NCBI GenBank assembly: GCA_019058275.1
Contig: JAHLVW010000024.1
Location: 1 to 20,136 of the forward strand
Reading direction: 5' to 3'
Source: Candidatus Heimdallarchaeota archaeon
GTDB lineage: Archaea > Asgardarchaeota > Heimdallarchaeia > JABLTI01
Length of the DNA: 20,136 bases
Positions 11,624 to 15,758 of the stretch are shown here, piece after piece; positions within the stretch are counted from its first letter, which is position 1, and the number at the start of each line of letters is the position of its first letter. Position numbers and translations under genes: made by a program. Below the pieces are notes generated by a model. It saw only the letters and a program-made list of their open reading frames with translations, made no database searches and was not told where the DNA came from.

Positions 11624-14600
11624 TCACTTTTTGCTTTTCACTAGTTTTAAGTGCAGTTTCATTCCTTGGATAGTTATTATCTCAGTGTTCTTTATACTAC
11701 TTATCAATTCCATTTTTGTTGTCAAAGTTTCAGTACAGATATAGTCTGAGAATTCTGTAAATGCCTTCTTTAGATCTTCACTTGCTTTATAGTAGACTTC
11801 TATTTGGTCATTTACATTCAAATCCAGTTTTTTCCTGAGATTTTGTATATGTCTAACTATATCTCGAGCTATTCCTTCAAGAAGCAATTTCTCAGAGATT
11901 TTTGTATTTAATGCTATGGCAAATCTATGATTGACAGCTATTGTATGAGTTCCTTTTGGTTGAACATCTAAATCTAGATCCTGGTTCAATCTCAGTTTCA
12001 TAGGTTTCATTTCAGGTGTTAATTGTACTTCAAGTAACTGTTCTGAATTATTGTATGCTTCAAAGATTACTTTTTGATTTAGTGTTTTCATCTTATCTTC
12101 AAGAAGCTTTATACGTCCTTTCAATTTTGGACCCAATAATTGATAGTTAGGTTTTAGTTTAAATGTCAAGAGTTTCTCTGGGTTTCTAACGAATCTTAGT
12201 TTTTTTACATTAAGCTCTGTTAATAACTCCATCTCGAATTCTTTCAACACCTTTTCGTTCTCTGTGTTCTTACACCATATGATAACTTCTTCAAGTGGTT
12301 GTCTCAATCTTAAATCAACTTTACTCCTAGCTGCTCTACCTAATTTTACAACCTCAAGTACATCATCCATTTTTTCATTCAATTCTTTTTTCAGGAGTTT
12401 CTTCGTCGATTTTGGATAATTACATAGATGAACACTCATGGGTAGATTTGAATCGAGGTTTTTTGTTAAGTTCTGATACAATAGTTCACCAAAGAAAGGA
12501 GCTATTGGAGCTATTAGTTTACTCATTGTTAGCAATACTGAGTATAGCGTTTCATAACCACTAAGTTTCTCTTCACTATTTTCATGTTTCCAAAATCTTC
12601 TTCTGCTTCTTCGTAAATACCAAGTGGAAAGCAATTCTACAAATTCTTCAAGTTCTAGCACTGTTTTTCTAAAATCCGCTTTATCCAGATATTTACGAAC
12701 TTGTTTAACAAGTAGGTTTAGTCTCGAGAGTAACCACTCATCAAGCAAAGGTCGTGTTCCTTTGGTTAGTTTTTGTTTTGGTTTAAACTGATCTAAATTA
12801 GCAAATGTAGCAAAGAATGAATAAACATTCCATAGTGTGAGAAAGAATTGCTTTAGCTCTTTTACTAAATGGTATCCAAAGTGCATTGTTTGTGTTAATT
12901 GCTGTTTAGCAAATGCCCATCGTAATAAATCTGCACCCATCTTATCTACTGCTTCTTCAAACCATATGGCATTTCCCAAGCTTCTGTGCATAGCTCTACC
13001 ATTTTTGTCATGAACCTTCTCGTGAGCAATTACTCTTTTGTATGGAGCTTTTCCAGTAAGGGTTACTCCCATAAAGAGCAGAGAATAGAACCACAATCTT
13101 ATTTGTTCTCTCATTTCACATATGGATTCTGCTGGGAACCATTTTTCCCAATAGGATGAATCTTCTAAGTATTTTAAAGTGGAAAAGGGAACTATGCCAG
13201 CATCTAACCAGCAATCTCCAACTTCCTGTACTTTAGTTACCTTTTTCCCACATTTAGGGCATTCTATTTGTACATCATCTATCCATGGACGATGCAATTC
13301 CTGTAAATTCTCGAGACCACTTACTGCTTTTTCAAAAAGCTCATCTTTTGATCCTATTACAATTAATTGTCCACAATGTTTGCATTCAAAGAATGGTAAT
13401 GGTAATCCCCAATATCTTTTTCTTGAGATACACCAATTTCCCATATTGTTTAACCAATCTTGCATACGCTTTTCATAAAAGCTGGGTTTCCATTCGACTT
13501 CACCAGTTGCTTTCTTCAGTAGTGGTCGTATTTCTTCACAGTCTATGAACCATTCTTCAACTAATCTAAAAACTAGTTCTTCATGGCATCTCCAACATGT
13601 AGGATATCTATGAGTAAATTCTTCTGTTTTATAAGACAAACCTGATTCCTCAAGCTTATTGAGAACAAGAGTTGAAACATCGGATACAAATACTCCTCCA
13701 AATTCATCATATTCTTTACCAAATATTCCGAATTCATCAATTGGTGATAAGACAGCTAATTTGAAGATTTTACTTAACTCAAAATCCTCTGCACCACATC
13801 CTGGAGCAATATGTACAAAACCTGTACCTTCTTCACCAGATACCTCTACCCATTCAATGACTTTATGGTCTACTCCTTTTTGAGCTGTTAAGTAGTTGAA
13901 AGGTGAATCATACTTCAAAGCAACTAGTTCTTTTCCAGGTAATACCTCTTGAACCTCAAATTCACCTACTAATAATGAAAGTTTACTTTCAACAACATAA
14001 TATACCTCATTTTTTTGCAGCACTTTACAGTAAGTTAAATCGGGATTAACTGCTACAGCTGTGTTTGCAGTAAGAGTCCATGGGGTTGTAGTCCAAACTA
14101 GTAAATTTGTTTTTGGTTGATTGTGTTTCTTAGTTTTTATTGGAAACTTCACAAAAACTGCTGTATGGCTAAGCTCTTTATAAGCATCATGTTGTTCATG
14201 TTGTGATAAAGATGTACCGCATCTAGAACACCATGGCATAGGGAAGTGACCTTTAACTATCCACCCTTTTTCATGGCAGGTTTTAAGAAAATACCAGATA
14301 TAAGAGATATTTGTATCAGTGTGAGTATAGTAGGAATTATCCCAATCCATGAACTGACCAAGTCTTTTGGATTGTTCGATTATTAGACCTGAAAAATGAT
14401 TCAATCTTTCCTTACATTTATTGGAAAAATTTTCCAAGCCATAATCTTCTATTGCTTTTTTGGAATTCAGTCCGAGTTCTTTTTCGACTTCAACTTCTAT
14501 CCAGAGACCTTGACAATCAAATCCATTTTGAAATCTTTGATCATATCCTTTCATTGCCCAATAGCGTTGTATTAAATCCTTTAGTGAACGACCCCAAGCA

Positions 14601-14830
14601 TGATGTAAACCCATTGGATTGTTTGCAGTTATAGGTCCATCTATGAAAGAATAATGCTTGTTTGAGTTTCGGTTTAATTCAACCCTCTGTTCAAAAACTT
14701 TGTTTACTTCCCAAAATTTCAATATCTCTTTCTCATGTTCAATTAAATCTAAGTTTGAACTAACTTCTGGAAATAGAAGCTCTTTTTTATTATTTATTTG
14801 CTTTTTATTGGTTTTAGTTTCGAATTTCAT
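11624..14830 (-). CDS. ileS: Isoleucyl-tRNA synthetase, type 2-like, with non-canonical signature motifs
   Basis: FIDGPITAN, GFDCQGL, CP1 editing motif VWTTTPWTL, GTGFVHIAPG, HRYPTCWRC, WCISRKRYWGLPLP, WYLRRSRRRFW, and a type-2-like C-terminus (EGIARDIVRHIQNLRK). GAGGA SD upstream. Confidence 0.97.
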   Translation of the reverse strand: MKFETKTNKKQINNKKELLFPEVSSNLDLIEHEKEILKFWEVNKVFEQRVELNRNSNKHYSFIDGPITANNPMGLHHAWGRSLKDLIQRYWAMKGYDQRFQNGFDCQGLWIEVEVEKELGLNSKKAIEDYGLENFSNKCKERLNHFSGLIIEQSKRLGQFMDWDNSYYTHTDTNISYIWYFLKTCHEKGWIVKGHFPMPWCSRCGTSLSQHEQHDAYKELSHTAVFVKFPIKTKKHNQPKTNLLVWTTTPWTLTANTAVAVNPDLTYCKVLQKNEVYYVVESKLSLLVGEFEVQEVLPGKELVALKYDSPFNYLTAQKGVDHKVIEWVEVSGEEGTGFVHIAPGCGAEDFELSKIFKLAVLSPIDEFGIFGKEYDEFGGVFVSDVSTLVLNKLEESGLSYKTEEFTHRYPTCWRCHEELVFRLVEEWFIDCEEIRPLLKKATGEVEWKPSFYEKRMQDWLNNMGNWCISRKRYWGLPLPFFECKHCGQLIVIGSKDELFEKAVSGLENLQELHRPWIDDVQIECPKCGKKVTKVQEVGDCWLDAGIVPFSTLKYLEDSSYWEKWFPAESICEMREQIRLWFYSLLFMGVTLTGKAPYKRVIAHEKVHDKNGRAMHRSLGNAIWFEEAVDKMGADLLRWAFAKQQLTQTMHFGYHLVKELKQFFLTLWNVYSFFATFANLDQFKPKQKLTKGTRPLLDEWLLSRLNLLVKQVRKYLDKADFRKTVLELEEFVELLSTWYLRRSRRRFWKHENSEEKLSGYETLYSVLLTMSKLIAPIAPFFGELLYQNLTKNLDSNLPMSVHLCNYPKSTKKLLKKELNEKMDDVLEVVKLGRAARSKVDLRLRQPLEEVIIWCKNTENEKVLKEFEMELLTELNVKKLRFVRNPEKLLTFKLKPNYQLLGPKLKGRIKLLEDKMKTLNQKVIFEAYNNSEQLLEVQLTPEMKPMKLRLNQDLDLDVQPKGTHTIAVNHRFAIALNTKISEKLLLEGIARDIVRHIQNLRKKLDLNVNDQIEVYYKASEDLKKAFTEFSDYICTETLTTKMELISSIKNTEIITIQGMKLHLKLVKSKK

Positions 14831-14944
14831 GATTCCTCATTTTAATTTGTACTCCTAAAATTAGAATAAAAATGAATATAGTATACACTAGGTGAAATGT
14901 AGAATAGGTGACTATTGCTGGGATATAATTTCATGATCCCTCAT
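14823..14944 (-). repeat. Direct repeat of the ileS RBS + start cassette (17/18 nt identical, 104 bp apart)
   Basis: Minus strand ATGAGGGATCATGAAATT (14944-14927) versus ATGAGGAATCATGAAATT (14840-14823). Confidence 0.85.
14912..14944 (-). other. Candidate leader peptide MRDHEIISQQ upstream of ileS
   Basis: GGTGA SD, 4-nt spacer, then ATG AGG GAT CAT GAA ATT ATA TCC CAG CAA TAG with tandem Ile codons. Translation is unproven. Confidence 0.35.
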
Positions 14945-14988
14945 GTTTTCACCATTGTTTTATATTCAATTGACTTTTCCGATGAAAA

Positions 14989-14996
14989 TTTATAAG
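14989..14996 (-). promoter_or_regulatory. Probable TATA box of ileS
   Basis: Minus strand GAAAGCCTTATAAAT (purine-rich BRE-like element + CTTATAAA), about 160 nt upstream of the ileS ATG, implying a long leader. Confidence 0.45.
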
Positions 14997-15072
14997 GCTT
15001 TCTAAAAGACATTTATTAGTAATATCCGTTCAGATCTAAGCTTTTTTATCGAAAATTCTCCATTAGTCTTAT

Positions 15073-15144
15073 CGAAACCTTTTATAAATCATTTATAAGC
15101 GTTCATTTATAAATAATCATTTATAAAGGAAAACTGTTTATAAA
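15073..15144 (+). promoter_or_regulatory. tbp promoter region with an array of five TATA boxes
   Basis: TTTATAA(A) at 15081, 15092, 15106, 15120 and 15137. TCATTTATAA is repeated exactly at 15089, 15103 and 15117. BRE-like CGAAAC precedes the first box. SD AGGAG at 15168-15172. Confidence 0.8.
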
Positions 15145-15182
15145 TAAACCTTAACAAACCCCTTATCAGGAGATCAAAACCC

Positions 15183-15758
15183 ATGGTTAAAATTGAATAT
15201 ACTATTCAAAACTGTGTAGCTTCAGGGAGCGTAGAAACCTCCAGAATAGACCTATATGCACTTGCAGATCGATTAGGTGAGAAACCAGAATATTTTGTAT
15301 CTTACGAACCTGAAAAATTCCCTGGGTTAGTACTAAAAATTCCAAAACCAAAAGTTAGTTCCTTGATTTTTGCCTCTGGTAAAATGGTTATTACTGGAGC
15401 AAAAAGCGCTGAAATGTTGCATGTAGCTGCTGATGAGATTGTCAAAGTCTTAAAAGCTGCTGGTGCTAAAATCACTGGTAAACCATCAGTAACAGTTCAA
15501 AATATCGTTGCTTCTGGAAACATAAATGCAATAATCAATCTTGAGTTAGCTTCAATTATGCTTGAGGGTAGCATGTATGAACCTGAACAATTCCCAGGTC
15601 TAATCTATCGTATTAGAGAACCAAAAACTGTTCTATTGCTATTCCAGAGTGGTGCCTTTGTTTGCACAGGTGCAAAGAAAGAGGAATTTGTTAGTGAATC
15701 CACAAGAAAAACTTACGAGATTCTTAAGGAAGTGGGTGCTTTAGAGGAAGAATTTTAA
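15183..15758 (+). CDS. tbp: TATA-box-binding protein (archaeal TBP)
   Basis: Two TBP repeats: IQNCVAS...YEPEKFPGL...LIFASGKMVITGAKS and VQNIVAS...YEPEQFPGLIYR...LLFQSGAFVCTGAK; short acidic tail. Confidence 0.98.
   Translation: MVKIEYTIQNCVASGSVETSRIDLYALADRLGEKPEYFVSYEPEKFPGLVLKIPKPKVSSLIFASGKMVITGAKSAEMLHVAADEIVKVLKAAGAKITGKPSVTVQNIVASGNINAIINLELASIMLEGSMYEPEQFPGLIYRIREPKTVLLLFQSGAFVCTGAKKEEFVSESTRKTYEILKEVGALEEEF

Follow-up and report, generated by a model that had tools for sequence, protein, structure and literature searches.

Tandem cassettes before an Asgard isoleucyl-tRNA synthetase gene as a candidate isoleucine-sensing +1 frameshift element

The window analysed here, i.e. the whole stretch of 20,136 nucleotides (nt) from contig JAHLVW010000024.1 of a Candidatus Heimdallarchaeota archaeon (assembly GCA_019058275.1), contains an intergenic leader between ileS (14830-11624, minus strand), which encodes an isoleucyl-tRNA synthetase (IleRS), and a divergent TATA-binding-protein gene (15183-15758, Pfam TBP). 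Two copies of a short cassette stand in tandem in this leader, each with a Shine-Dalgarno (SD) sequence, a start codon and a mini-frame that includes an Ile codon. The interpretation that we consider probable is that the two cassettes constitute a programmed +1 frameshift, which would take place at an Ile codon starved of charged tRNA and would be coupled to the translation of ileS. The original prediction, made from the letters of the window, had pointed to an isoleucine-centred control element read by the ribosome, and in this it is upheld, as the mini-frame and its Ile codon are conserved in two Asgard classes and in front of both IleRS paralogs. It had also named a TATA box, an SD, an upstream open reading frame (uORF1) with adjacent ATT and ATA codons, an open reading frame (ORF) of 30 amino acids (aa), a repeat, several pairings and a TCACCT copy, all of which we located on the minus strand. 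The features of the leader and of the gene that follows it, in the numbering of the window, are these:

14988-14995, minus strand: TATA box TTATAAAT of the ileS promoter; a CCTTATAAAT-like box is kept ~45-50 nt before cassette 1 in orthologous leaders.
14949-14953, minus strand: SD GGTGA of cassette 1 (SD1), 4 nt before the AUG; conserved in orthologous leaders.
14912-14944, minus strand: mini-frame of cassette 1 (the 0 frame), MRDHEIISQQ and stop TAG, with ATT at 14929-27 and ATA at 14926-24.
14927-14932, minus strand: proposed shift site 1, GAA (P site) and AUU (A site), with the +1 reading AAA UUA; based on codon counts over 83 cassettes.
14842-14928, minus strand: +1 leader frame, 28 sense codons and TAA, ending 1 base before the AUG of cassette 2; open in all relatives.
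14888-14895, minus strand: anti-SD-like block UCACCUAG inside the +1 frame; conserved, with no compensatory changes.
14852-14856, minus strand: SD AGGAG of cassette 2 (SD2), 11 nt before AUG 14840; read from the leader sequence and the 16S tail.
14814-14840, minus strand: mini-frame of cassette 2, MRNHEIRN and stop TAA; overlaps the annotated ileS start.
14823-14828, minus strand: proposed shift site 2, GAA then AUU; the +1 frame here is the IleRS frame.
11624-14830, minus strand: ileS, coding for an accessory type-2 IleRS paralog (IleRS2), 1068 aa when counted from the annotated ATG 14830; going upstream, the first stop in this frame is TGA 14839-37.

The second cassette is a near copy of the first. 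The block ATGAGG[G/A]ATCATGAAATT recurs at 14840-23 with 17 of 18 positions identical (a repeat search gave 21 nt at 90%, and a direct comparison 20/24), and the 18-mer of the repeat is unique to the leader in the 4.1-Mb genome. The duplication of ribosome-binding site and start codon that had been predicted is therefore real, but the idea of a decoy start did not hold, and by comparison the repeat appears as a second copy of the putative frame-changing cassette. The 30-aa ORF at 14934-14842, earlier described as a second upstream ORF, is the +1 leader frame plus two codons at its start; its inner ATG is lost in four of the ten relatives with a matched first cassette (L005, L007, L012 and L013), in which the frame is still open. 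SD1 is the complement of the UCACC found in the 3' tail of this genome's 16S rRNA, which ends GGAUCACCUCCU, and the transcript is predicted from the usual archaeal spacing to start at ~14965. Further along the leader, CATTTTTATTC at 14862-14872 (minus strand) is TATA-like and lies ~25 nt before AUG 14840, where an internal promoter giving a near-leaderless transcript from mini-frame 2 is possible.

Defined as SD, AUG, (R/W), Asp/Asn, x, GAA/CAA/AAA and AUU, the cassette was found in 83 distinct versions before ileS genes of both paralog types, in the class of the window and in a second Asgard class. Across the 11 orthologous leaders of the window's own family, whose proteins share 59-94% identity, almost every base of the repeat and of uORF1 is kept, and the flanks diverge; cassette 1 reads MRD[HQ]EII[SP].. 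in ten of these leaders and MRG.. in one, and cassette 2 reads MRN[HR][EFQ]I.. in all 11. An alignment of leaders from relatives had been proposed along with the original prediction, and the Ile-containing upstream ORF proved conserved in it. In other families of the class the element takes the form SD - [AGT]TG - (NGG) - GAT - xxx - [GAC]AA - ATT, at 59-320 nt upstream of ileS and in one to three copies per leader, and it precedes ileS genes of the window type as well as those of the housekeeping type. The 15-mer ATGGATCRNGAAATT is present in 31/31 genomes of family f2 and, of the 30 loci retrieved, 29 have it directly before ileS, with near-zero counts for a reversed control pattern, and in this family it is an almost unique genome-wide marker of ileS. 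Family f31, which belongs to another class of the same phylum, has ATG GAT TGY CAA ATY before ileS in 22 distinct leaders. The anatomy of the cassette, its conservation and its association with ileS are thus established. No cassette was found in 73 leaders of distant, mainly bacterial (chiefly Chloroflexota) homologues, nor in the Asgard family f20, where upstream sequence sufficed for 21 ileS leaders, which are short or plain, and a search of the window's genome that allowed other codons at the sensed position returned no convincing further case.

Two observations from this survey concern the arrangement of cassettes elsewhere. Five leaders of genus g4 (L014, L017, L018, L019 and L021) carry two cassettes ~150 nt apart; in L017, L018 and L021 the +1 frame of the first cassette continues without a frame change into the second mini-frame, and the +1 frame of the second cassette in this genus encodes a semi-conserved ..W-T-x-H-T-L-F-E-L-V..R-R-K-R.., ending 8 nt into ileS. 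On another contig of the window's genome (C59:4515, plus strand), ATG GAT CAA AAA AGG TGA is followed by a peptidase-like open +1 frame of 168 codons across an A6 run, for which a sequencing error in the homopolymer, a pseudogene or a further slip site are possible explanations.

The composition of the proposed shift site is narrowly constrained. Over the 83 cassettes the A-site codon is always Ile (ATT 77, ATC 6), and the same search with this codon left free gave two further matches, both AAA. The change between ATT and ATC is silent for Ile in the 0 frame and turns Phe/Leu into Ser in the +1 frame. At the P site we found GAA in 53 cassettes, CAA in 24, TTT in 4 and AAA in 2, and never GAG, CAG or AAG; since this codon is always NAA-A or UUU-A, at least two of the three anticodon pairs would be kept after a +1 slip. 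The middle codon varies in its third base (CGC/CGT/CGA, CAT/CAC, TGC/TGT), and Ile codons account for 3.2% of the +1 leader frames versus 6.9% and 12.9% when the same bases are read in the other two frames. Immediately upstream of the site is the SD-like GAGG-GAUC, a possible stimulator, in which GAGG precedes the P-site codon by 6 nt and GAUC by 2 nt; this spacing is unlike that of prfB, and the element varies between lineages. The pair of Ile codons that had drawn attention in the window is present there, but only the first of them (AUU/AUC) recurs generally; outside the window's family, ATA was seen in a single leader. Neither the Ile-Ile pair nor AUA decoding is supported as the basis of the control.

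The layout of the reading frames around this site points in the same direction. The 0 frame is 6-14 codons long in 69 cassettes of the window's class and up to 16 in f31, and in every cassette its stop comes 1-10 codons past the Ile codon. Start codons are ATG, GTG or TTG only, at an SD-to-start spacing of 4-11 nt that fits initiation in the 0 frame, and the only change in cassette length is one whole codon. Most +1 frames have no ATG, GTG or TTG before the shift site, and in the window's family a TGA just upstream closes the +1 frame. From the Ile codon onwards, the +1 frame is open for 19-63 codons, with a median of 29 versus 14 for the third frame; the chance of such openness is 0.009-0.24 per lineage and ~1e-10 when combined over 31 lineages, a figure that is overstated as the lineages are related.

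The +1 frames also end at particular places. Among the 52 distinct leader-type cassettes of the Heimdall type, 48 have their +1 stop within -20 to +15 nt of the next start, typically in the forms ATGnnTAA, ATGA/GTGA, TGAATG or TAAaATG, the gap in the window being +1 nt (TAA-A-ATG), and in three of the four exceptions the +1 frame reads in frame into the next cassette. In f31, 19 of the 22 stop/start overlaps are -4 or -1, i.e. overlaps for which coupling by termination-reinitiation has been demonstrated in archaea (PMC6728339, PMC10666635), and the distance from the mini-frame AUG to ileS, which ranges over 84-187 nt, is divisible by 3 in 20 of the 22 leaders. Translational coupling was one of the outcomes named in the original prediction, and it fits these overlaps. 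In 12 cassettes, namely cassette 2 of 11/11 family loci and the cassette of L022, the +1 frame is the IleRS frame itself, and at cassette 2 six of the 11 family loci (L005-L009 and L012) lack any start codon in the IleRS frame.

From these patterns in the sequence we infer that the shift occurs, that it responds to the charging of tRNA-Ile and that it is coupled to downstream translation, and the following pathway can be hypothesized. Ribosomes would start at AUG 14944 and read four codons up to GAA 14932-30, which brings AUU 14929-27 into the A site. With ample charged tRNA-Ile, AUU would be decoded, mini-frame 1 would be ended at TAG 14914-12 and the ribosomes would leave. With charged tRNA-Ile scarce, the A site would stay empty and the P-site tRNA could re-pair one base forward (GAA-A to AAA), after which the shifted ribosomes would translate 28 codons and stop at TAA 14844-42, which leaves a single base to AUG 14840. 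Termination-reinitiation would then bring them to cassette 2, and a pairing between UCACCUAG and UAGG may be melted as well. Ribosomes that restart at AUG 14840 or at ATG 14830 would reach site 2 (GAA 14828-26, AUU 14825-23), where the +1 frame is that of IleRS. Those that remain unshifted on mini-frame 2 would stop at TAA 14816-14 and so cover the annotated ileS start, and thus mini-frame 2 should repress when isoleucine is plentiful. Two such sites in series would make the output steeply dependent on tRNA-Ile charging. The enzyme regulated in this way, IleRS2, would be a spare, inhibitor-tolerant synthetase needed when the housekeeping enzyme fails to keep tRNA-Ile charged.

Several findings weigh against a frameshift of this kind. 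The window has an in-frame ATG in both +1 frames (14934 and 14830), from which direct initiation could bypass the shift, and every +1 frame contains an AUH codon (from GAT-C/T/A) that is a possible weak start. The conservation of AAAUU also fits Lys-Phe/Leu in the overlapping +1 frame, the two cassette differences between the classes (T/C and C/G) leave the amino acids of the +1 frame unchanged, and the invariant Asp/Asn (GAU/AAU) is not accounted for by the model. The openness of the window's own +1 frame has a chance probability of ~0.16, so that the case rests on the comparison with relatives. A tRNA-Ile(GAU) gene was not found by Aragorn, with or without introns, in an assembly that has only 24-27 detectable tRNAs. 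No RNA run containing this stretch was found, and contigs from four runs did not cover the leader. Finally, third-position periodicity is absent from the 29-codon +1 frame of genus g7 (0.68/0.62/0.67 bits). A conserved leader peptide in the +1 frame was dropped as a candidate on that ground. The lack of periodicity implies that the +1 peptides are not selected, translation of the frame being deduced from its openness, its end points and the phase of the indel, and what is selected seems to be the transit of ribosomes.

The alternative that survives best does without a shift. Here the overlapping upstream ORFs would be started separately, the long +1 ORF from the inner AUG (in the window) or from a near-cognate AUC/AUU located two codons ahead of the Ile codon, and this ORF would be coupled to ileS; the mini-frame would compete or occlude, and isoleucine supply would act through stalling that alters access to the second start. 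The +1-frame ATG present in the window and in some relatives, with a GAGG-type SD 4 nt before it, speaks for this possibility, as do the ATC/ATT/ATA in the +1 frame of every cassette and the synonymous nature, in that frame, of the two base differences between Heimdall-type and f31-type cassettes. However, a canonical +1-frame start is missing in most lineages, and where only a near-cognate codon is available, a strong AUG served by the same SD and placed only 4-7 nt before it should win. Moreover, the variation is of the sort that preserves the 0 frame: the ATT/ATC change keeps its Ile and alters the +1 residue to Ser, and neither the start-codon swaps (ATG/GTG/TTG) nor the whole-codon indel disturbs it. 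We therefore regard separate initiation as rather unlikely.

The original prediction itself had favoured a structure-switching attenuator, in which stalling at the Ile codons of uORF1 would re-pair the leader (SD1/anti-SD/SD2 and GGGAU/AUCCC) with the frame unchanged, and would relieve either termination at a U tract or the sequestration of the ileS ribosome-binding site. The pairings on which it drew are present in the window: GGTGAAA 14953-47 faces TTTCACC 14897-91, GGGAT/ATCCC flank the Ile codons, and a second TCACCT stands at 14911-06. Of the 11 relatives, 8-9 retain the 5-bp GGUGA/UCACC core, and UCACCUAG is able to pair with either SD1 or the UAGG of SD2 and may have a role. Nevertheless, the idea of a structured leader did not stand beyond the presence of these pairings. 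The folding energy of the 166-nt leader, -23.0 kcal/mol, compares with -20.7 +/- 3.6 in shuffled sequences (z = -0.65). Covarying stems had been anticipated in the leaders of relatives, but pair counts over the 11 orthologous leaders gave no compensatory change in any of five candidate helices, and relatives do not keep the two outermost pairs of GGTGAAA/TTTCACC or the second copy of TCACCT. Consensus fold energies were -5.4, -5.0 and -0.8 kcal/mol for three leader groups, near zero in g7 and f31, and support no conserved structure. As for termination, the T5 run at 14872-68 and the T5-T7 runs that follow the mini-frame in genus g7 could be cited in favour, but all of these bases are also codons of the open +1 frame, and no comparable T run was seen by eye in the f31 leaders; the U tract is not supported as a general terminator. 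Most lineages have a single Ile codon and not a run, and the attenuator leaves the stop-free +1 frame, its exact end on the next start, the multiple-of-3 spacing and the fusion to the IleRS frame unexplained. With no excess of folding, no covariation and no conserved consensus structure behind it, we consider this mechanism unlikely.

The earlier remark that no T-box consensus is visible was confirmed: neither the T-box (RF00230) nor any other Rfam family matched at gathering score in the whole window, and there was no relevant match at E <= 5 in 14750-15200. No tRNA-like structure was found in the leader, and mimicry of a tRNA anticodon by CAU/GAU in a hairpin loop was ruled out, as CAT is replaced by CAA/CAC/CGN in relatives. 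A binding site for a protein or RNA, e.g. IleRS or tRNA-Ile, in the manner of the E. coli thrS operator mimicry or of a T-box-like contact and with the frames incidental, would suit the near-invariant nucleotides of the family alignment, synonymous positions included (GAT, GAA, ATT), and the complementarity of GAUC and GAGG in the block to the 16S 3' tail, but it is very improbable given these negative structural searches, the lack of a conserved fold, the coding-like variation in the third base of the middle codon and in the start codons, and a frame architecture that it does not explain.

The synthetase downstream of the tandem cassettes bears on why a frameshift-based sensor might be placed there. 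The host genome, at 4.1 Mb and 93% completeness, carries two genes for IleRS. The one in the window has GLHH at the HIGH position and AMHRS at the KMSKS position, and the GXHH motif has been tied to mupirocin hyper-resistance in bacterial IleRS2 (PMC10485003). It is only ~39% identical to the other paralog of the same genome, and its nearest non-Asgard relatives are mainly from Chloroflexota/Dehalococcoidia, at 46-60% identity, which suggests that it was acquired horizontally. The housekeeping paralog, IleRS1 (contig C101, from 32339), has the motif HVGH, and its leader in this genome has no cassette and consists of a plain SD and ATG. Among relatives the window-type paralog is patchy and the other type is carried by nearly all; the divergent arrangement of tbp and ileS2 is present in 11/11 family loci. 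In locus L116, from another family, the single cassette of a housekeeping-type ileS shares the extended block GAAATTATAYCCCAGCAATA with the window's cassette 1 (14932-14912), and this sharing between L116 and the leader of the imported paralog suggests that the leader was copied from a native ileS onto the acquired one. A gene of the HMGL family (citramalate or isopropylmalate synthase) was not found in the 93%-complete assembly, and so the host may be without its own synthesis of isoleucine or leucine. The window also encodes an OppA-like peptide-binding protein, which the original prediction had pointed out, and a gelsolin-repeat gene, and repeated TTTATAAAT-type TATA boxes are arrayed at 15073-15182, directly before the divergent TBP gene.

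Taking the locus and the distribution together, we tentatively put forward a wider proposal, to which we give somewhat less than even weight: that hungry-ribosome frameshifting at a sense codon serves in Asgard archaea as a dedicated sensor of tRNA-Ile charging, of sufficient age to be common to at least two classes and grafted onto an acquired IleRS, and that the two sites in the window make a steep switch, which would turn on the inhibitor-tolerant IleRS2 only on failure of the housekeeping enzyme. To our knowledge, T-boxes are absent from Archaea, and we know of no archaeal mechanism described for matching the levels of aminoacyl-tRNA synthetases to tRNA charging; our literature searches found none. 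The element offers a directly testable candidate for such matching. If the frameshift is real, it would be the first natural and functional case of hungry-codon frameshifting, and also the first +1 frameshift with a regulatory role in a cellular gene of an archaeon. Full-text searches returned no literature linking frameshifting with ileS or with Asgard archaea, and what is new here is the distribution in the Heimdall class, the presence before both paralogs, the tandem arrangement and the fusion of the second site to an imported IleRS2 of the GLHH type. With the native IleRS and an imported one bearing an inhibitor-resistance motif both under the element, amino-acid sensing would be linked with a possible antibiotic defence. 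There are practical consequences as well: the start codons of ileS are probably misplaced in several genome annotations, gene callers do not see such mini-frames, and a cassette of ~35 nt could make a compact amino-acid-specific translational sensor.

The proposed frameshift can be compared with several known systems. A review of archaeal recoding lists one proven -1 shift in a cellular gene (PMC8211752). With prfB the ileS cassette shares a short 0-frame ORF that is started normally, a P-site tRNA able to re-pair after moving forward by one base, a 0-frame stop that coincides with the site or follows it closely and, at cassette 2, a functional protein in the +1 frame (PMC5009743). Unlike prfB, which senses a stop codon and the release factor, it would sense a sense codon (Ile) and the supply of aminoacyl-tRNA; the SD-like stimulator that prfB has at 3-nt spacing is not clearly present, most ileS cassettes would feed a coupling ORF and not the protein itself, two sites would act in series, and the domain is Archaea. 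A second comparison is with frameshifting in Ty1, ABP140 and EST3 and at the hungry codons of E. coli, where a slowly decoded A-site sense codon is combined with a P-site tRNA that re-pairs (CUU AGG C), and where frameshifting of the Ty1 and hungry-codon type rises when the relevant aminoacyl-tRNA is limiting (PMC5009743). In Ty1, however, a tRNA that is always rare fixes the ratio, with no feedback sensor, and the E. coli events are treated as errors, whereas the ileS site is conserved in the leader of the cognate synthetase. The same review knew of no natural starvation-induced frameshift that yields a functional product (PMC5009743).

In the case of ketolide induction of ermC, a shift within the leader ORF sends ribosomes through the spacer and activates the downstream start (PMC5009743), which matches cassette 1 and the leaders with a single cassette. 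The inducer there is a drug and a defined hairpin is unfolded, whereas the cue proposed for the ileS leader is a lack of Ile-tRNA, a hairpin is not supported, and the overlaps point to termination-reinitiation. Leader-peptide attenuators (pheM-pheST, ilvL, thrL) and T-boxes likewise match the expression of a synthetase or a pathway to the supply of charged tRNA, but the ileS leader has no run of cognate codons, no covarying terminator/antiterminator and no T-box fold, and its read-out would be a change of frame. Antizyme (OAZ) differs in that its shift responds to polyamines, occurs at a stop codon and is modulated by the nascent peptide and by 3' structure. It nevertheless provides a parallel for the logic of the loop, since in antizyme, as proposed for ileS, a +1 frameshift is both the sensor and the effector of a homeostatic circuit and is conserved over large distances (PMC5009743).

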